Source: an uncultured Candidatus Bathyarchaeia archaeon (lineage in GTDB: Archaea > Thermoproteota > Bathyarchaeia > 40CM-2-53-6). Taken from it: a DNA stretch of 64,000 nt. Below the pieces are notes generated by a model. That model had not been told where the DNA came from and did not search any database. It saw nothing but the letters and a program-made list of their open reading frames with translations. Below are positions 45,147 to 55,674 of the stretch, piece by piece. The translations under genes were made by a program, and so were the position numbers. The stretch covers positions 49,230 to 113,229 of the forward strand of contig CAZLHM010000001.1 in assembly GCA_964559555.1 (NCBI GenBank), in the 5' to 3' direction. Within the stretch, counting starts at the first letter, position 1; every line of letters starts with the position of its first letter.

Positions 45147-45920
45147 GGCCCATCCGTAGACGAAGATGGGAGGGAGGAGTCGCTGCCTACATTCAGTTTC
45201 ACATTTGATGACGGAAACTCCTCGCAGCTCACCGACTACTATCCAGTCCTGAGGAGACATCGGTTTCCTGCAACCTTCTATTTGATAGCAAGCGAAATAG
45301 GAATTCGTGGCAGACTGTCGGTTGACAATGTGCATGAGCTCCTCGCTGAGGGAAACGAGATCGGCAGTCACGGTCTAACCCACAGATCATTAGCGGAACT
45401 CGGGCCGAGTCAACTACGTAGTGAAGTTGAACGAAGCCGGCAGATTCTCACAGATTTCGATGTGAGAAGCTTCGCATATCCGTATGGGCATTATGACGAA
45501 AAGATCGCGACAGAAGTAGCCCGCTACTACGATTCGGCACGCGCCTACAGCCGCGTACCAGTGCCTAACGTGGCAGAACAGGTGGACAAGTATGCGCTTC
45601 AAGCTTTCTCAATTGAAGGCAGGTTCGAGTCGCGAATAGATCCGAGAATGCCTGACTTTATCATGCGTAGAGAGGGCATCATGGAATCCAAGGATTGGTA
45701 TATTCTGATCCTGCACGGCCGAGCTTCGGCCAGGATCCCGACTCGTCCACGTGACCTCACAATAGAACAGATGCGCGGTTACATGAACTATTTGCGAGCC
45801 ACGCTGAAGTCCAATCGAGTTCAGTTCTTGCGGAATCTCGAAGCATTCTGTGAACATCTCGCTCAAGAGAAGATCACCGTCACTACAGTATCTGATGGAG
45901 TGGCGCGGCTATCGCCCTGA
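45147..45920 (+). CDS. Polysaccharide deacetylase (NodB/CE4 family); catalytic N-terminal motif lies upstream of the first canonical start
   Basis: In-frame LPTFSFTFDDG (the catalytic Asp-Asp motif) at 45183-45215 and the downstream His-rich metal site (GSHGLTH). The first ATG/GTG/TTG in this frame is 45282, and only a CTG at 45183 precedes the motif. An ATG at 45143 is in the -1 frame, next to a purine-rich slippery-looking gggagggaggag. Confidence 0.55.
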   Translation, partial: GPSVDEDGREESLPTFSFTFDDGNSSQLTDYYPVLRRHRFPATFYLIASEIGIRGRLSVDNVHELLAEGNEIGSHGLTHRSLAELGPSQLRSEVERSRQILTDFDVRSFAYPYGHYDEKIATEVARYYDSARAYSRVPVPNVAEQVDKYALQAFSIEGRFESRIDPRMPDFIMRREGIMESKDWYILILHGRASARIPTRPRDLTIEQMRGYMNYLRATLKSNRVQFLRNLEAFCEHLAQEKITVTTVSDGVARLSP

Positions 45921-46107
45921 CGGGGCGTTCGAGGACACAGAGCATGATGCTGAAGTTGCTGTCGGAAAAATGGGTAGCAAGTTCCTAGTGGCAGTTTTCT
46001 TGAGAGTCGGCAATAGCATCGAAGTTATGACAATCTACCATACTCGGGAACTCGAGAAGCTGGTCTCATCGAAGCTGCAAAGAGGTGCTTGGAGGAGAGT
46101 CAAATGA
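45895..46107 (+). CDS. DUF4258-like small protein (putative toxin of a DUF4258/DUF2283 pair)
   Basis: ~70 aa ending ...KFLVAVFLRVGNSIEVMTIYHTRE, overlapping the start of the DUF2283 gene by 19 nt. Confidence 0.4.
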   Translation: MEWRGYRPDGAFEDTEHDAEVAVGKMGSKFLVAVFLRVGNSIEVMTIYHTRELEKLVSSKLQRGAWRRVK

Positions 46108-46301
46108 AGGTCCACTACGACAAGGAGTATGACATCCTATACTTGACGTTCAAGGACGGACCGAGTCATGACGTCATCGAATCGGCTCCTAACGTTGTGC
46201 TGGAGCTTGATGAGAAGAAAGAGATAACGGGCTTGGAGAGCTGGGACGCCAAGAAGACAGGACTTGTCGAGCAGGTCGCCAAGACCGCCGCGAGTTCATA
46301 G
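46089..46301 (+). CDS. DUF2283-family small protein (putative antitoxin)
   Basis: 70 aa with MKVHYDKEYDILYLTFKDGPSHDVIESAPNVVLELDEKKEITGLE, the characteristic DUF2283 pattern (YD.E.D.LYI...). Confidence 0.5.
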   Translation: MEESQMKVHYDKEYDILYLTFKDGPSHDVIESAPNVVLELDEKKEITGLESWDAKKTGLVEQVAKTAASS

Positions 46302-46510
46302 CTTGATCTTGTGACTGAAATCCCTAGCCTCAGTTATGCCATCGGACATACTGAGTCCTTCAGTGTTATCATGGGGTTTGGACCCATGGATCACCAGTAT
46401 GAATTCTGTCGAGCTTGCCCTTCTTGATGGGGATTGTCACGGAACTCAGCACTCGTAACACGAAATCGCGTTGCTCAGACCTCTGACTTTGAAGAAACTA
46501 GCTGCCACGC

Positions 46511-46535
46511 AAGAGTGGTGAATGTGCGGGAGGGG
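46511..46535. repeat. Distal copy (attL-like) of a direct repeat matching the 3' end + trailer of tRNA-Leu(CAG)
   Basis: aagagtggtgaATgtgcgggagggg here versus aagagtggtga--gtgcgggagggg at 48555-48577, i.e. 23 of 23 aligned bases with one 2-nt indel. The second copy overlaps the last 11 nt of the tRNA gene. Confidence 0.5.
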
Positions 46536-47010
46536 CGTCTCCAATCTCAGATTGGATGCGCACTTACTCCTTCGCCCTTGGATTCTGAGACGATTAAGGA
46601 CAATCCGGCGCAACATTTCAGTGTTGTCGTCCCGAGTTTCATGAGTTGTATGATATCGTGTTGCCGTGACCTGTGGCGGACGACTGAGGCTTCGAGCGTT
46701 TTCCTCTAGGAGATTATTCCGAAGCCATAGAACCTTGTCACAAGCCTTGAGGTTGTGTCTTCAATTGAACCCGTTTCGACAATGAGCCGAGGCTGGTGAT
46801 CTAGAGTCTGAACTGAGCACGATTCGTCAGACTAGCCGAGAATCCGAAGAACTTCTCCATGCTCACTCTGGAACCGGATAGAACTCTTAGTGGGCGACAG
46901 CGAGGAACAATACCTTCGAGCTATCACCTGCTGGGGAGGACGACAACTCACTGTCCCAGCCCCCACACCTTATCAGCTACTCAAGGTTAGGTTGTTGGCG
47001 TGGCAATTGC

Positions 47011-47018
47011 TTATAGGA
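47011..47018 (+). promoter_or_regulatory. Candidate TATA box (TTATAGGA) for the DarT-macro gene
   Basis: Centred ~30 nt upstream of the ATG at 47045, consistent with a leaderless or short-leader archaeal transcript. This also argues against the GTG-47000 start. Confidence 0.3.
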
Positions 47019-47044
47019 ATGTAGAACCCGACTTCGGTGGTGAC

Positions 47045-48223
47045 ATGTCGCTTCAGTCGTCCCAACGTCGTTCAACAGTTAGAGAACTGTACTACATCAC
47101 TCACATCAAGAACTTGCCCTCGATACTCCGCAGAGGTATCTTATGCCACCGGAAGATGGTTGCAGAAGGAATCCCCTTCGAACCGATTTATGACGAAGAG
47201 ATCGTCTCAAATCGAAAGAACATCGCAGCGCCAAATGGCGAAGACTTGTGGAGCTTCGCGAACTTCTATTTTCAGCCTCGTAACCCGATGCTTTATCGTG
47301 TTCTGCTTCATAGACCTCGAGAGGATATCGCCATCCTAGGCGTTAGACGAGACATTCTCGGTCTCTCCAAAGTCTACGTCACAGACGGGAACGCTGCGAG
47401 CTCGAATTCAAAGATACTGCCTGTAAACCCCAAGGCCATTGAGCAAATCGCAGCCCAGACGGATGAGGTCTGGTGGAACTATGTGGATGGCAAGAGAAGA
47501 ATCATGGCAGAGTGCTTGGTTGCGGATGAGGTGCCTCCCGAACATCTCCAAGCTGTGTATGTCCCAAATCATCAAGGAGCGGAGAGAGCGAGAACCTTGG
47601 TTGGCGGGCCTATCATACCCGTCATACCACAACCAGAATGGTTCTTCCTTCCATCTAAGGAGATTCGGCTCACTCCGACGCTCTCCGTAAGGGAGGGCGA
47701 CATGTTCTTCTCTGGTGCGCAAACACTCACGATAAGTGTCAATTGCGTTGGGAAGATGGGCAAAGGCCTTGCATCGAGAGCAAAATACCTGTTCCCTGAT
47801 GTGTACGTATATTATGATGACCTTTGTCGAAGAAGGGCCCTGAAGTTGGGCAAACCGTACCTCTACAGACGGGATATCTCACTGGATCTCCAGCTCGCAG
47901 ACGAGCCCACAAGGTTGCCTGATGCCAATGCTGGAACATGGTTTCTGCTCTTTCCTACCAAGAATCACTGGAGAGACAGAGCTGACATACACGGAATCGA
48001 AAAGGGATTAGGATTGACCGCAAGAGACTACAGGGATATGGGGATCAAGTCACTGGCAGTTCCGGCACTAGGATGCGGACTCGGCGCACTTGATTGGAAG
48101 GATGTGGGCCCGATTCTCTGCAAGTATTTGTCCCGCTTAGAAATCCCGACGTGGATATATCTGCCTGCGGAGAGACGAATATCTGAGGAGTTCCTCACTC
48201 CCGAGTACCTTCTCCGACGATGA
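47045..48223 (+). CDS. Fusion protein: DarT-like ssDNA thymidine ADP-ribosyltransferase domain (DUF4433) + C-terminal TARG1/DarG-like macro domain
   Basis: N-terminal ELYYITHIKNLPSILRRGIL, FYFQPRNPMLYRV, DGNAASSNS and the catalytic Glu in RIMAECLVADEVPPEHLQAVYV (codon 47510-47512) match DarT/DUF4433. The C-terminus has ISVNCVGKMGKGLASRAKYLFPDV ... FPTKNHWRDRADIHGIEKGLGLTARDYRDMGIKSLAVPALGCGLGALDW, a macro-domain pattern of the TARG1/DarG type. An alternative GTG start at 47000 adds 15 aa. Confidence 0.8.
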   Translation: MSLQSSQRRSTVRELYYITHIKNLPSILRRGILCHRKMVAEGIPFEPIYDEEIVSNRKNIAAPNGEDLWSFANFYFQPRNPMLYRVLLHRPREDIAILGVRRDILGLSKVYVTDGNAASSNSKILPVNPKAIEQIAAQTDEVWWNYVDGKRRIMAECLVADEVPPEHLQAVYVPNHQGAERARTLVGGPIIPVIPQPEWFFLPSKEIRLTPTLSVREGDMFFSGAQTLTISVNCVGKMGKGLASRAKYLFPDVYVYYDDLCRRRALKLGKPYLYRRDISLDLQLADEPTRLPDANAGTWFLLFPTKNHWRDRADIHGIEKGLGLTARDYRDMGIKSLAVPALGCGLGALDWKDVGPILCKYLSRLEIPTWIYLPAERRISEEFLTPEYLLRR

Positions 48224-48554
48224 CGACAATAGACGTTTCCGGCCACAACAGCTAGTGTTGGGCGAGGCAGACGAGGTGCAGGGGAAAGAACTCTACGTAC
48301 AATTGGGCCGTTGCAATGCGACGACGATCAGAGGAAGTCTCAATTGGCGCAATTTCGTTTCTTGCATCTATTGACTGTCTCAGGGTGTCCGTCCAATTCT
48401 CCTGCAAGGAATCTCTAGAGTTGCAGAGAGTTTCAAGCCAATTGATCTCGGACACCTTGTGAGCATGTGCCAGCTGCGACGAATCGACATTTGGCAAGTG
48501 TGGATCTGTGACATGCATGTCATGGATTGCCCGGCGTCTAACCCAGTTACGACC

Positions 48555-48577
48555 AAGAGTGGTGAGTGCGGGAGGGG
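48555..48577. repeat. tRNA-proximal copy (attR-like) of the direct repeat
   Basis: aagagtggtgagtgcgggagggg. Positions 48567-48577 are the 3' acceptor strand and discriminator of the tRNA, and 48555-48566 is the 3' trailer. Confidence 0.5.
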
Positions 48578-48694
48578 GGATTCGAACCCCCGAAGGCCTA
48601 CGCCATAGGCTCCTGAAGCTTGGGTAGCGTTTGTCGCTTCTACCCCTTAGACCTGGTTCCCGCCAGCTGATGAGCTGGGCTCGGGTACCCCCGC
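48567..48694 (-). tRNA. tRNA-Leu(CAG), class II, 128-nt gene containing two predicted non-canonical BHB introns (mature ~85 nt)
   Basis: Minus-strand reading gives acceptor GCGGGGG/CTCCCGC with U8 A9, T-arm GGGGG-TTCGAAT-CCCCC, discriminator A and no encoded CCA. Predicted intron 1 (+48657-48679) removes a bulge-helix-loop to give D-arm CCCGAGCCAGGTCTAAGGGG, near-identical to crenarchaeal tRNA-Leu. Predicted intron 2 (+48620-48639, position 29/30) is flanked by a 4-bp helix GGGT/ACCC and 3-nt bulges, giving anticodon arm TAGGC-TTCAGGA-GCCTA with anticodon CAG at +48613-48615. Long variable arm GCCTATGGCGTAGGC. Confidence 0.7.
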
Positions 48695-48818
48695 TGATTT
48701 CGGCTAGTTCGAGCACACCTAGTTAATCCTTACGCGAACTTGACAACTCGATTCCAGTCAATCATCAGAACGCCTATCAGATTGGCTTAGGATTAGCGCC
48801 CCTCGCGGAGATGTCCCG

Positions 48819-53238: not shown

Positions 53239-55674
53239 ATGACAAGTGTGGAACTCACTCCCAAGGATCTGAGGGTACACTGTGAGCCGATGAAATGCCA
53301 TACCAGCGGCGAACTTGCGCCTTTGGACGGCATCATTGGCCAAGACCGCGCCCTTCGCGCGCTGCAATTCGGATTGGGAATTGGGGAGAAGGGATTCAAC
53401 GTATACGCCGCGGGTCCGCCAGGCACAGGCAAGACCACGGCCGTAAGGAACTTCCTAGAGGCCCTTGCGAAGAGCCTACCGACTCCGCCGGATTGGTGCT
53501 ATGTCAACAACTTCCGGAACCCATACGAACCGTTATGCTTGAGACTTCCAACCGGACGCGCTGAAGTTCTCCAGAAAGACATGAAGAACTTCATCGAAGA
53601 GATCAAACGGGCTGTTCCGAGAGCTCTCCAAAGCGAAGAGTTCCAGTCCAAGAGGGACCAGTTGATCAAGGCTGCGGAACAGCGGAGAAACGAGATCCTA
53701 ACCAGCCTCGGCGAAGAAGCAGAAAGGTCAGGTTTCACGATCCAGGTCACACCGCTAGGGATAGCATTGATCCCTGTTTTTGATGGGAAACCCATCAGCG
53801 AAGAAGAGCTTGCTAGATTGCCTGATGAGGTAAGAGAGCAACTCGACAACAAAAGAAAAACGCTCGAAAGCAAATTTGAGGAGGGAACGAAACGGATCGC
53901 CGGGCTCGACAGAGAAACAAGACAGGCAGTGAGGAAACTCACCAATGATGCCGTCGAGTATGCTATCGGCTTCCTATTGGAGAGTATATTGAAGACCTAC
54001 GCAGACCTCCCCGAAGTCGTGGCATACCTCAAAGAGGCAAGGAGCGATATCCTCGAAAACTTCGAGCTTTTTGCAGGTAGGCAACAGCCGGAGATCGCGC
54101 AAAGTCAGCTGCTGACACCTTGGATGCGGGATCTGCCCTTCAGAAGATACGAAGTCAACGTCATCGTTGACAACTCTGAACTGAAGGGCGCGCCAGTCAT
54201 CTTCGACGAGAACCCGACATATCAGAACCTATTCGGAAGGATCGAAAAGGAAGCACAGTTTGGAAGCTTCACTACCGACTTCACACTGATAAAAGCCGGT
54301 TCGGTGCACAGAGCCAACGGAGGATACCTCGTCCTTCCAGTCGAAGATCTTCTCGCGAACCTGTTCTCATATGATGGTTTGAAGAGAGCTCTGAGGAACA
54401 ACCGTATTGTCATAGAAGAACCAGGCGAACGGCTTGGTTTCATTTCTACGAAGACCCTGACCCCTCAACCGATTCCTCTCAACGTGAAGGTCATTCTCGT
54501 AGGAAATCCCATTCTATACCAAGCGCTCTACGCATACGACCCTCAGTTTCAGGAACTCTTCAAGGTGAAGGCCGACTTCGACACTACCATAGAAAGAAAC
54601 GAGGAGAATCTCGAACGGTACGCTTCCTTCGTATGCACACTCTGCGGAAGAGAAGGACTCAGACATCTCGAATCTTCAGCGATAGCCAAGGTTGTGGAAT
54701 ATGGCTCCAGACTGGCTGCAGATCAACGAAAGCTTTCAACCAAATTCGCGGAGGTTGCCGATCTCATAAGAGAAGCCAACTACTACGCTTCACAAGATCG
54801 TGCTGAGTTCGTCACTGCCGCACACATCAATAAGGCCTTGGAAGAGAAAGTCTACCGTTCGAACCTTATCCAGCAGAAGATCGTCGAGATGACAAACCGT
54901 GGTCTCATACTGATAGACACGTCAGGATCCAAGATCGGTCAGGTAAACGGTCTCTCTGTCATAGGCTTGGGTGACTTCGCTTTTGGCAGACCGAGCAGAG
55001 TAACAGCGAGCATAGGTCTAGGAAGAGAAGGCGTAGTTGATATCGAACGTGAGGCGAAGATGGGTGGCCCCATACACACAAAGGGTGTCCTGATACTCGG
55101 AGGATATCTAGCCAACAAGTACGCGCAAGAGAAGCCTCTCAGCCTCTCCACTAGGCTAGTCTTTGAACAGAGCTACGAAGGAGTAGAAGGCGACAGCGCG
55201 TCCACTACGGAACTGTACGCTATCCTGTCGGCTCTAGCCGATCTTCCCGTCAAACAGAACATAGCGGTCACAGGTTCTGTGAACCAAAGAGGAGAAGTCC
55301 AAGCCATCGGCGGCGTCAACGAAAAGATAGAGGGCTTCTACGAGCTCTGCAAAGCAAGGGGCCTGAAGGGTGACGAGGGCGTGATGATTCCGAAGAGCAA
55401 CGCACGGGATTTGATGCTCAAGGATGAAGTCGTCGAGGCCGTGAAGAAGGGACTCTTTCACATATACGCTGTAGGCACTATCGACGAAGGCATAGAGCTG
55501 CTAACTGGAGTCAAAGCCGGCACAAGGAGAGAAGGTGGAACCTTCGAACGCAACACAGTGAATCACAAGGTTGACCAACGCCTGAAGAAGATGGCGGAAT
55601 CCCTGGTCAAGTTCGGAGAAGCACCTAGGCGTGAAAAGCCCTCTCGTGGACGAAAGAAGAACGAAGAAACATAG
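53239..55674 (+). CDS. Lon-related AAA+ ATP-dependent protease (COG1067-type, soluble)
   Basis: 811 aa with Walker A GPPGTGKTT, an AAA+ core, and a C-terminal S16 Lon protease domain (GDSASTTELYAILSAL...AVTGSVNQRGEVQAIGGVNEKIEG, a Ser-Lys dyad context). Confidence 0.75.
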   Translation: MTSVELTPKDLRVHCEPMKCHTSGELAPLDGIIGQDRALRALQFGLGIGEKGFNVYAAGPPGTGKTTAVRNFLEALAKSLPTPPDWCYVNNFRNPYEPLCLRLPTGRAEVLQKDMKNFIEEIKRAVPRALQSEEFQSKRDQLIKAAEQRRNEILTSLGEEAERSGFTIQVTPLGIALIPVFDGKPISEEELARLPDEVREQLDNKRKTLESKFEEGTKRIAGLDRETRQAVRKLTNDAVEYAIGFLLESILKTYADLPEVVAYLKEARSDILENFELFAGRQQPEIAQSQLLTPWMRDLPFRRYEVNVIVDNSELKGAPVIFDENPTYQNLFGRIEKEAQFGSFTTDFTLIKAGSVHRANGGYLVLPVEDLLANLFSYDGLKRALRNNRIVIEEPGERLGFISTKTLTPQPIPLNVKVILVGNPILYQALYAYDPQFQELFKVKADFDTTIERNEENLERYASFVCTLCGREGLRHLESSAIAKVVEYGSRLAADQRKLSTKFAEVADLIREANYYASQDRAEFVTAAHINKALEEKVYRSNLIQQKIVEMTNRGLILIDTSGSKIGQVNGLSVIGLGDFAFGRPSRVTASIGLGREGVVDIEREAKMGGPIHTKGVLILGGYLANKYAQEKPLSLSTRLVFEQSYEGVEGDSASTTELYAILSALADLPVKQNIAVTGSVNQRGEVQAIGGVNEKIEGFYELCKARGLKGDEGVMIPKSNARDLMLKDEVVEAVKKGLFHIYAVGTIDEGIELLTGVKAGTRREGGTFERNTVNHKVDQRLKKMAESLVKFGEAPRREKPSRGRKKNEET

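Follow-up and report, generated by a model that had tools for sequence, protein, structure and literature searches.

A single-chain DarT-macro (DarTG) gene between att-like repeats at a tRNA-Leu(CAG) gene of a Bathyarchaeia archaeon

The gene at positions 47045-48223 raises the question of what purpose is served when a DNA ADP-ribosyltransferase toxin domain and a matching macro (antitoxin-type) domain are produced as one polypeptide, and whether such a protein has been encountered before. It is located in a stretch of 64,000 nucleotides from an uncultured Candidatus Bathyarchaeia archaeon, the whole of which is here called the window. We address the question by considering the reading frame and its two domains, the relatives of the encoded protein, and the site at which the gene resides.

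The reading frame and its two domains

There is one intact ORF at 47045-48223 on the forward strand, encoding 392 amino acids and ending with a TGA codon at 48221-48223. Public gene calls use GTG 47000 as the start, which yields a 407 amino acid product, and the frame is open to 48223 from either 47000 or 47045. However, ATG 47045 is the better choice, because homologues start about nine residues ahead of LYYITH. A TATA-like box would fall within the ORF if GTG 47000 were the start. If this element is a promoter, then its position would imply a near-leaderless archaeal transcript. All five motifs quoted in the first-pass annotation (YYITHIKNLPSIL, FYFQPRNPMLY, AECLV, NCVGKMGKGLA and AVPALGCGLGALDW) are present, and its placement of both domains in one ORF is confirmed by the uninterrupted reading frame and by matches to family profiles. 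The features of the gene are as follows.

47010-47017 (+): TATA-like box CTTATAGG, read from the sequence, about 30 nt 5' of ATG 47045
47045..48223 (+): single-chain DarT-macro (DarTG) coding sequence, from ORF, profile and homologue searches
47090..47647 (+): DarT (DUF4433) ADP-ribosyltransferase domain, amino acids 16-201, from Pfam PF14487
47093..47095 (+): Tyr17 codon, in the column of the canonical NAD-ribose-contacting His, from alignments
47510..47512 (+): Glu156 codon GAG, catalytic ART glutamate, aligned with E160 of Thermus (Taq) DarT
47603..47683 (+): ordered inter-domain connector, amino acids 187-213 (PVIPxPxxFFxP...), from conservation and a pLDDT of about 90
47684..48184 (+): DarG/TARG1-type macro domain (predicted ADP-ribosyl hydrolase), amino acids 214-380, from PADLOC DarG (9e-40)
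47960..47962 (+): Lys306 codon AAG, catalytic lysine, aligned to the PTKKHW motif of 5M31

Profile searches with the two halves, which the first-pass annotation had proposed as a check, agree with both of its domain assignments. The N-terminal half matches the Pfam DarT model (PF14487) along its full length (profile positions 1-201 of 201, E=4.3e-42, 144.6 bits versus a cut-off of 22.5). It also matches the PADLOC DarT profile (2.9e-36) and NCBIfam toxin_DarT (NF048013; 6.6e-26), the latter with 91.3 bits and thus under the equivalog cut-off of 150 bits. Identity to DarTs that have been characterised is low, at about 22%. Glu156, whose GAG codon had been correctly placed at 47510-47512, is invariant among 201 of 201 family members and aligns with the engineered Ala of 7OMU, 7OMV and 7YK3. 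The corresponding E160A variant of Taq DarT is non-toxic (PMC5179494).

Several other positions of the DarT domain are also well conserved. The equivalent of the Tyr in the H-Y-E triad (DarT2 Y71) is Y75, with Y in 184 and F in 17 of the 201 members, and the equivalent of the oxocarbenium-stabilising Met is M82 (200/201). The base-coordinating position (DarT2 H119, DarT1 N104) is occupied by N116 (199/201), and both R151 and N80 are invariant (201/201). For the proton-abstracting Arg (DarT2 R51, DarT1 R52), the invariant R57 is a candidate, being located in the right loop, two to four residues off and beside an alignment gap.

The earlier claim that the DarT hallmarks are intact stands for the catalytic glutamate, but not for the NAD-ribose-contacting His, which is replaced by Tyr17 throughout the clade. 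In DarT1, H17 contacts the adenine-proximal ribose of NAD+ and belongs to an H-Y-E triad and an xHxTH motif (PMC11543638). Alignments place Tyr17, which is part of the sequence YYITH, in the column that holds His in DarT1 (H17), Thermus DarT2 and Mtb DarT, and among the 201 family members this column is Y in 196 and F in 3. We report as new that the fused clade, as judged from these alignments, is a Y-Y-E variant instead of H-Y-E. The replacement of the ribose-contacting His may change or weaken the binding of NAD+.

The C-terminal half scores above the cut-off of the Pfam Macro model (PF01661; E=1.4e-5, 25.4 bits versus 22) and matches the N-terminal part of the DarG models, namely PADLOC DarG at model positions 3-149 of 329 and NCBIfam DarG (NF048014; 1.5e-35) at positions 3-154 of 338, the latter with 123 bits and hence under the equivalog cut-off of 250 bits. 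The macro domains of Taq and Mtb DarG match at 7e-19 and 2e-20, respectively. Lys306 is the equivalent of TaqDarG K80 and TARG1 K84 and is found in 201 of 201 family members, such that the catalytic Glu and Lys are both present and invariant, as had been claimed. TaqDarG K80A is inactive (PMC5179494), and the TaqDarG residues whose mutation impairs hydrolysis (N22, K29, K80 and G119) all have conserved equivalents here. K306, N233, K240 and G343/G345/G347 vary little or not at all, and N233, D219, W309 and the three glycines of the GxGxG loop are invariant in all 201 members. Connector residues P197, F200, F201, P203 and L213 are likewise kept across homologues. We also report as new that the fused clade is without the C-terminal DarT-binding domain of DarG. 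For Taq DarT, the macro domain by itself suffices as antitoxin (PMC5179494).

Both domains are under strong purifying selection, with a dN/dS against the closest homologue of 0.08 for the whole protein (DarT domain 0.083, macro domain 0.055). This value and the invariant catalytic residues uphold the earlier view that the gene is not a decayed relic. The GC content of the gene is 0.49-0.52 versus about 0.53 for the window, and thus there is no clear compositional anomaly.

A known single-chain family

The first-pass annotation considered a covalently fused writer-eraser pair to be an undescribed arrangement. This proved incorrect, because PDB entry 7OMU, a crystal structure released on 2021-06-23 under the title "Thermosipho africanus DarTG in complex with ADP-ribose", shows a DarT-macro protein that occurs naturally as a single chain and aligns with the window protein from end to end (phmmer E=4e-130, amino acids 3-390; 52% identity by BLASTP over 392 columns). 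The 7OMU chain equals a natural Thermosipho ORF at 385 of 386 positions, and the sole difference is a Glu to Ala change at the position of Glu156. The statements made here about 7OMU draw on its PDB title and sequence. The entry was reportedly described by Schuller et al. in Nature in 2021.

A comparison of a predicted structure with known DarT and DarG structures, which had also been proposed, supports the same assignment. The AlphaFold model of the window protein (pLDDT 85.9, pTM 0.83) matches 7OMU in a Foldseek alignment of 383 columns with TMq 0.89, TMt 0.93 and an rmsd of 2.1 Å. Its DarT domain matches Thermus DarT 7OMY (TMt 0.76) and its macro domain matches those of Taq and Mtb DarG (TMt 0.87-0.89). 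Because the model superposes on 7OMU across both domains, the inter-domain arrangement is predicted to be the same.

Thus, the window gene is a member of an already known single-chain DarTG family for which 7OMU is the type example. The supposedly undescribed fusion belongs to a large family for which a structure has been solved and is not to be ranked as a discovery. Nevertheless, the biology of single-chain DarTG appears to be unaddressed in the searchable open literature, wherein no activity is reported for any fused DarTG. Several DarTG papers and reviews that were consulted make no mention of a natural DarT-DarG fusion. No activation mechanism for the covalently fused pair is evident. How a covalently fused toxin and antitoxin would be released is a real and testable question, and the clade-wide change from His to Tyr provides an experimental handle.

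There are at least 290 species genomes with full-length relatives. A search of archaeal genomes and MAGs for the same fusion, as the first-pass annotation had advised, recovered it from MAGs of Bathyarchaeia and Halobacteria, and it is widespread in bacteria. Uninterrupted ORFs of about 390 amino acids encode more than 200 homologues, and the family alignment has a mean column identity of 63%. At E<1e-30 there are 447 representatives at 50% identity, about 30 of which are full-length fusion clusters. The family occurs patchily and without regard to taxonomy. Phages and plasmids yielded no close full-length relatives; matches in phages (238 records) are to the macro domain only, and those in plasmids are distant split pairs.

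There is no darG, helicase or other partner gene adjoining the gene in the window, which agrees with what had been noted previously. The idea of a conserved partner was dropped after ORFs around 80 homologous loci were clustered, because no neighbour family occurs in more than 5 of these loci. Neighbours in the 80 loci are heterogeneous and are mostly ordinary metabolic genes. Among 129 immediate neighbours annotated with Pfam and PADLOC, restriction-modification and helicase genes are a minority, and defence-type immediate neighbours are present at about 10% of homologous loci, which is a raw proportion for which we claim no enrichment. No synteny is shared with the closest homologues (82% and 62% identical).

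A tRNA-Leu(CAG) gene and att-like repeats

A tRNA-Leu(CAG) gene follows the DarTG gene in the opposite orientation, such that the two 3' ends face each other, and two copies of an imperfect direct repeat, located about 2.04 kb apart, bracket the DarTG gene.

46510..46551 (no strand assigned): direct-repeat copy A, sharing 12+12 identical nt with copy B, with a 2-nt indel
48554..48593 (no strand assigned): direct-repeat copy B, att-like, comprising the tRNA 3' end and about 13 nt beyond, from repeat comparison
48567..48694 (-): tRNA-Leu(CAG) with two introns, from a model with a spliced cloverleaf

The tRNA introns are located at 48657-48679 (D-loop) and 48620-48639 (position 29/30), and their removal leaves an 85-nt RNA that folds into a clean cloverleaf. 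Full-length copies found among 80 listed metagenome contigs (34 distinct variants) show this tRNA to be conserved, and a hairpin in an intron exhibits covariation. Searches of the window with default ARAGORN and Rfam found nothing and thus missed the tRNA. A relaxed ARAGORN solution, 'tRNA-Gly(acc) with a 37-nt intron', and solutions with single deletions were dropped for the two-intron Leu(CAG) model. A two-intron tRNA that is missed by standard tools constitutes a small gain in annotation.

Synteny with more than 30 relatives stops at the tRNA 3' end (48566). DarTG is not found in any of the 80 listed related contigs that share the tRNA-LarA-Nramp synteny, and it is also absent from close relatives around the LonB-like gene. 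A scar homologous to copy A is located 3' of the same tRNA in two related loci (L116 and L089). Relatives carry, at the same site, exact duplications of the tRNA end that bracket TIR and SIR2_2-TPR cargo, and Phage_integrase is the commonest family downstream of tRNA-Leu(CAG) in relatives. Thus, DarTG occupies a location bracketed by att-like repeats beside a tRNA-Leu(CAG) integration hot spot, which we report as new. There is no integrase within the 2-kb repeat-flanked segment. Since the segment lacks an integrase and its repeat is degenerate, it is probably the remnant of a tRNA-integrated element.

An archaeal host is very probable, as had been suspected, because the best named relatives of the LonB-like neighbour are from Nitrososphaerales and Bathyarchaeia, because relatives have MCM, GINS and RFC genes nearby, and because the tRNA introns are of archaeal type. 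The presence of TIR and SIR2 cargo at this hot spot in relatives supports an immune role for DarTG, and this context suggests that Bathyarchaeia/Nitrososphaeria-like archaea have a variable defence locus here.

Proposed role and comparison with known systems

The domain identities, invariant catalytic residues, purifying selection, 7OMU-like fold, patchy distribution and island context computed here, along with the lack of a conserved partner, are consistent with a self-neutralising DNA ADP-ribosylation module that has been horizontally acquired, probably for defence. We consider this to be the best explanation of the whole, and a likely one. For this module we infer the enzymatic activities, the target base, a defence role and some means of switching on net modification.

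We predict that the DarT domain transfers ADP-ribose from NAD+ to a base in single-stranded DNA. Thymidine is the most probable target, given that the eraser belongs to the same DarG macro type as that of the thymidine-specific DarTG2 systems. Macro antitoxins are paired with thymidine modification (DarTG2), and NADAR antitoxins with guanosine modification (DarTG1) (PMC11543638). The macro domain, which would be packed rigidly on the DarT domain via the conserved connector, is predicted to remove the mark through the lysine mechanism of TARG1 and DarG, using Lys306. The covalent tether would fix writer and eraser at a 1:1 ratio and would substitute for the absent C-terminal DarT-binding domain of DarG, and thus the module would be self-immunising and a second gene unnecessary. 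In this archaeon, the gene would be horizontally acquired cargo of the roughly 2-kb segment between the att-like repeats at the 3' end of tRNA-Leu(CAG). Given this cargo context, with integrases and immune-type cargo at the same site in relatives, the most probable role is antiviral defence or element addiction, by analogy with two-gene DarTG.

A more adventurous proposal, which we regard as rather doubtful, is that the fused Y-Y-E DarT-macro protein is a distinct single-gene immune module and not a stapled DarTG2, and that it has spread between archaea and bacteria as cargo of tRNA-integrating elements. Perhaps such a module might operate by an ssDNA-triggered, NAD+-consuming cycle, or might be activated when a viral inhibitor blocks the macro site.

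Another possibility is that the protein is a housekeeping regulator that marks host ssDNA, for instance at origins, with transient, self-limiting ADP-ribose and thereby slows replication or growth during stress. A comparable role has been proposed for Mtb DarTG, and both the mostly ordinary metabolic neighbours in the 80 loci and the strong purifying selection on both domains would be compatible with it. However, the distribution is patchy, and archaeal copies are only 51-57% identical among themselves, which makes them as distant from one another as from bacterial copies. The absence of the gene from the 80 listed tRNA-LarA-Nramp contigs and from close relatives around the LonB-like gene, and its residence between att-like repeats where elements integrate, also make this role unlikely.

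Alternatively, writing and erasing could together constitute a DNA-triggered NAD+ sink, wherein NAD+ and H2O are converted to nicotinamide and ADP-ribose, such that abundant viral ssDNA would drive a futile cycle and cause abortive infection as do SIR2 and TIR. The scheme follows from stoichiometric logic, both catalytic centres are invariant and rigidly coupled, and NAD+-consuming effector types (TIR and SIR2_2-TPR) reside at the same hot spot in relatives. Yet the defence provided by two-gene DarTG consists in the modification of viral DNA, according to literature as cited in PMC9503650, and the presence of Tyr in place of His may reduce NAD+ turnover. We therefore judge this scheme to be quite unlikely.

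The same Tyr, found at the His position in 196 of 201 members, could also mean that the DarT half is attenuated or non-catalytic (Y-Y-E) and serves as an ssDNA- or NAD-binding guide for the macro hydrolase. In that case the whole protein would function mainly as an eraser, whether as an orphan antitoxin or in the repair of ADP-ribosylated DNA. Orphan DarG-like macro proteins are indeed common, as seen in the 238 macro-only phage records, and phage mimics of the antitoxin have been described. However, relatives that are about 55% identical in sequence retain Glu156, M82, N116, R151 and Y75 with little or no variation, which is unexpected for a dead site, and the dN/dS of the DarT domain (0.083) is low like that of the macro domain. 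Moreover, the Glu to Ala change in 7OMU and in other deposited DarT chains suggests that the depositors saw an active toxin. On balance, a chiefly erasing protein is very unlikely. Finally, we dismiss an artefact in which a sequencing, frameshift or assembly error merged two genes, or a decaying pseudogene, because the identical protein is encoded on independent ENA, NCBI and JGI contigs, more than 200 homologues are continuous, 7OMU is a natural single chain, the connector is conserved and dN/dS is 0.08.

The self-neutralising module that we favour shares features with several known systems. The two-gene DarTG2 systems of Thermus aquaticus, M. tuberculosis and EPEC have the same DarT fold and catalytic Glu and the same DarG-type macro domain with its catalytic Lys and ADP-ribose-pocket residues, and their T-then-G gene order is colinear with the fusion. 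In contrast, they consist of two polypeptides and possess both the DarG C-terminal domain and the His of H-Y-E, which are absent here. Type II and IV toxin-antitoxin systems are defined by two separate genes and products, whereas here both domains are encoded by one ORF, and the 80 loci share no conserved neighbour. Closer in layout are plasmid pairs of a DUF4433 gene and a short macro-only gene (e.g. Klebsiella quasipneumoniae NZ_AP021957.1), which have the same order, a 1-base gap and a macro protein of 225 amino acids. This pair looks like the unfused counterpart, although its members are separate ORFs and are 25-31% identical to the window protein.

In DarTG1 (DarT1 with NADAR), the toxin has a homologous DarT fold (8BAQ, TMt 0.62; profile E=8e-9) and an Asn at the base-coordinating position (N104 versus N116). 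However, its eraser is NADAR, its target is guanosine, and DarT1 keeps H17 and an R52/D54 pair that is not evident here. Human TARG1 (C6orf130) has the same macro fold (TMt 0.83-0.85) and catalytic lysine mechanism, but it is a stand-alone eukaryotic hydrolase that is about 20% identical. Pairs of SirTM with a Zn-macrodomain indicate that such fusions are a recurring theme, although there the writer is a sirtuin, the macro class is unrelated to that of the window protein, and the target is a protein.

The closest counterpart is the T. africanus DarTG of 7OMU, which shares with the window protein the domain order, the length of about 390 amino acids, the connector, the C-terminal tail and the YYITH, AECLV and PTK motifs, and which is likewise without the DarG C-terminal domain. 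Its host belongs to the Thermotogota, whereas ours is an archaeon in which the gene is located at a tRNA-Leu hot spot, and the architecture of the two proteins is identical.

The fused protein and its conservation

There is one uninterrupted ORF spanning window positions 47000-48223 of the forward strand, and it contains the following features.

47045-48223, forward strand: DarTG gene, encoding a DarT domain and a DarG/TARG1-type macro domain
47093-47095, forward strand: codon for Tyr17, at the position of the NAD-ribose-contacting His of the H-Y-E triad
47510-47512, forward strand: codon for the catalytic Glu156, as placed by the first-pass annotation

Initiation at ATG 47045 yields a 392 amino acid protein that ends at the TGA stop codon at 48221-48223. 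This start codon is the more likely choice because homologues begin about nine residues ahead of the LYYITH motif. A TATA-like sequence, CTTATAGG, can be read roughly 30 nucleotides upstream and may serve as a promoter element. The Pfam DarT profile (PF14487) aligns over its entire length to amino acids 16-201 (E = 4.3e-42), and the Pfam Macro profile scores slightly over its gathering threshold (E = 1.4e-5). PADLOC models for DarT (3e-36) and DarG (9e-40) also match, as do NCBIfam models for DarT (7e-26) and DarG (1.5e-35), each under its equivalog cut-off and with the DarG alignment limited to the macro half (model positions 3-154 of 338). These profiles assign the two halves of the predicted protein to DarT and DarG/macro without ambiguity.

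In an alignment of 201 full-length family members, Glu156, Lys306, Asn233, Asp219, Arg151, Asn80 and Trp309 are invariant, as are the three glycines of the macro diphosphate loop. Glu156 occupies the column of E160, which is an engineered alanine in the Thermus and Mtb DarT crystal chains, and the E160A change abolishes the toxicity of Taq DarT (PMC5179494). Lys306 occupies the column of TaqDarG K80, whose change to alanine inactivates the hydrolase (PMC5179494), and the equivalents of TaqDarG N22, K29 and G119, where mutation impairs the hydrolase, are conserved in the fused family. Relative to an 82%-identical homologue, dN/dS is 0.08 for the whole gene; taken separately, the DarT part has a value of 0.083 and the macro part one of 0.055. 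Strong purifying selection acts on both halves, and the gene is not a relic or a product of misassembly. The first-pass annotation had described a single ORF with motifs of both domains and intact catalytic residues, and this description stands with respect to the motifs (all of which were found), the domain identities and the absence of decay.

Distribution and mobility of the family

There are 2,424 clusters matching the window protein at E < 1e-10 in a protein database search, and every one of the best 120 is 385-413 amino acids long and matches over its full length with 54-82% identity. With each species represented by one genome, a scan turned up relatives in 290 genomes, and the best 80 of these matches all cover nearly the full query. 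Among 50%-identity representatives, an exhaustive profile search gave 447 matches at E < 1e-30, about 30 of which are full-length fusion clusters. The fusion exists in both bacteria and archaea-labelled MAGs. Among the best 80, the bacterial hosts are Chloroflexota, Aquificaceae, Ignavibacteria, Omnitrophota, Planctomycetota and Acidobacteriota, along with the cultured cyanobacteria Anabaena and Dolichospermum. The archaea-labelled MAGs belong to Halobacteria (L019, L023), Bathyarchaeota/Bathyarchaeia (L052, L070) and an 'uncultured archaeon' (L041).

The archaeal copies share 51-57% mutual identity, are no nearer to one another than to bacterial copies and form no archaeal grouping, and the L041 copy is 83% identical to bacterial MAG copies. 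The gene spreads by horizontal transfer. Copies from Aerophobetes (L036), Psychracetigena (L014) and Omnitrophota (L010) MAGs are 79-83% identical to that of L041, a likeness that reflects either a very recent inter-domain transfer or a binning error.

Other architectures are present among the profile matches. One set of cluster representatives (P0287, P0289, P0301, P0385, P0386) includes proteins of 450-610 amino acids with a C-terminal macro domain and proteins of 428-566 amino acids with a C-terminal DarT domain. There are also macro-only proteins, 35-43% identical to the macro half, in 238 phage genomes, including phiEco32-like, jumbo Klebsiella/Serratia, Pseudomonas and Erwinia phages (records H2-H15). 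These fit the orphan DarG-like anti-defence proteins known from the literature. On MT837167.1, a 7.5-kb contig recorded as 'Bacteriophage sp.', the match spans 92% of the fused protein with 28% identity.

The tRNA-Leu(CAG) locus

The window is archaeal. The best named relatives of a LonB-like protein encoded at 53239-55671 are from Nitrososphaerales (68-70% identity) and Bathyarchaeia (61-62% identity). Contigs with 76-78%-identical LonB-like proteins bear MCM, GINS, RFC and Hel308 genes, and lack a DarTG gene within the retrieved 10 kb on each side. As the first reading had proposed, the DarTG protein has no partner gene: neighbour clustering across 80 homologous loci yielded no conserved partner, and every family was confined to 5 loci or fewer. 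The 129 immediate neighbours form a mixed set, led by ResIII (6), DEAD (5) and Eco57I methylase (3), and a few match PADLOC restriction-modification or helicase models. The nearest homologues reside in unrelated genomic contexts.

Two small forward-strand ORFs (45850-46107 and 46089-46301) overlap by 19 nucleotides; they may represent a toxin-antitoxin-like pair of small genes within the variable region of the DarTG gene. The second encodes a DUF2283 protein (E = 5e-13), and the first (85 amino acids) has no Pfam match. The ensuing ~740 bp (46302-47044) hold no convincing gene. The DarTG gene itself is bordered by the following features.

46510-46551 and 48554-48593: direct repeat flanking the DarTG gene, from a repeat search
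48567-48694, reverse strand: tRNA-Leu(CAG) gene with two introns, from its spliced cloverleaf
48657-48679, reverse strand: 23-nt intron in the D-loop
48620-48639, reverse strand: 20-nt intron at position 29/30

The repeat copies share 12 + 12 identical bases with a 2-nt indel and are ~2.04 kb apart. The second copy comprises the 3' end of the minus-strand tRNA-like gene plus downstream bases. This repeat looks like an att scar, and the DarTG gene is the only intact ORF within the segment it bounds. Removal of both introns gives a perfect, textbook tRNA-Leu(CAG) cloverleaf, which was detected neither by ARAGORN with default settings nor by Rfam. The two-intron gene recurs in full-length copies among the 80 metagenome contigs listed, in 34 distinct variants, wherein one intron hairpin exhibits GC-to-AU covariation. 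A publicly annotated 154 amino acid ORF without a Pfam match (48252-48716, reverse strand) overlaps the tRNA gene on the same strand and is probably spurious.

In more than 30 of these 80 contigs a tRNA-LarA-Nramp block is in synteny with that of the window (70-73% nucleotide identity), and similarity ends at 48566, the tRNA 3' end. All 80 loci lack a gene for a DarTG protein. In eight contigs (L092, L095, L112, L124, L131, L143, L144, L150) the tRNA 3' end is duplicated exactly and in direct orientation, with the two copies 0.9-9.1 kb apart. The intervening cargo includes, in L124, a CAP12/Pycsar-type TIR protein with a TPR protein and, in L131, a SIR2_2-TPR protein whose neighbour is weakly cyclase-like. 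Phage_integrase is the top Pfam family (8) among 124 ORFs downstream of this tRNA in relatives. In this archaeal lineage the tRNA-Leu 3' end is a hot spot of integration and defence, and the repeats, the synteny break and the cargo and integrases of relatives indicate that the DarTG gene is probably cargo of a variable, integrase-targeted locus. There is no integrase in the local 2-kb segment between the 46510-48593 repeats, which looks like a remnant. For an immune or addiction role of the DarTG gene, this hot-spot context is the strongest argument at hand, though a circumstantial one.

A homologous att-like scar lies ~400 nucleotides downstream of the same tRNA in contig L116 (5940-6018), and another is found in L089. 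In many relatives, among them L087, L091, L095 and L099, the pattern ...CTCCCGCA-CCACAGCCGAACCTCCCGCA... just downstream of the tRNA repeats the acceptor 3' strand 12 nucleotides past the tRNA end. Such copies may be stacked att scars of earlier integrations.

Relationship to known DarTG systems

A PDB sequence search identified a full-length match (amino acids 3-390, E = 4e-130) to the 406-residue chain of 7OMU, which is 52% identical by BLASTP. Foldseek lists this entry as "Thermosipho africanus DarTG in complex with ADP-ribose", released 2021-06-23. An AlphaFold model of the window protein, built with 51 homologues as input (pLDDT 85.9, pTM 0.83), superposes on 7OMU with a TM-score of 0.89 and an rmsd of 2.1 Å over 383 columns (Foldseek), and thus the two proteins are predicted to have the same folds and the same inter-domain packing. 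The 7OMU chain is a natural fusion and was not engineered as one: 385 of 386 aligned residues agree with a single ORF that occurs naturally in a Thermosipho genome (L079), and the sole mismatch is Glu to Ala at the equivalent of Glu156. The arrangement had been taken as undescribed, and this claim does not hold given 7OMU and the widespread relatives. The window gene adds a new, archaeal and island-borne member to the known family of single-chain DarTG proteins.

We found no text on natural DarT-DarG fusions in the searchable literature, and as far as could be searched, the biochemistry and biology of single-chain DarTG are essentially uncharacterised beyond one crystal structure. Points of remaining interest are the active-site variant described below, the activation of a covalently fused toxin-antitoxin and the defence hot spot.

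The fused clade lacks the DarG C-terminal domain, which is present in the NCBIfam and PADLOC models of two-gene DarG. In two-gene systems, full-length DarG also inhibits DarT through direct binding, and the macro domain by itself suffices as antitoxin (PMC5179494). Plausibly, the covalent tether stands in for the DarT-binding role of the absent domain. The connector (amino acids 187-213) is conserved in the family alignment and ordered in the model, and does not resemble a flexible linker open to cleavage.

DarT1, Thermus DarT2 and Mtb DarT have an N-terminal strand xHxTH, whereas the fused clade has YYITH. The first His of this motif (H17 in DarT1) forms a hydrogen bond with the adenine-proximal ribose of NAD+ (PMC11543638). 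Its position is occupied by Tyr in 196 of the 201 family members and by Phe in three others, which makes this a clade-defining Y-Y-E variant. The other active-site residues (Y75, M82, N116, R151 and E156) are retained, and the invariant R57 is the candidate for the role of the proton-abstracting Arg. The DarT domain is slightly closer to DarT2 (profile E-values 2e-13 and 4e-10, TMt 0.76) than to DarT1 (8e-9, TMt 0.62), but remote from both at ~22% identity. In DarTG2 a macro antitoxin accompanies thymidine modification, and in DarTG1 NADAR goes with guanosine (PMC11543638). Since the fused protein likewise carries a macro domain, our best guess by analogy with DarTG2 is that its target base would be thymidine.
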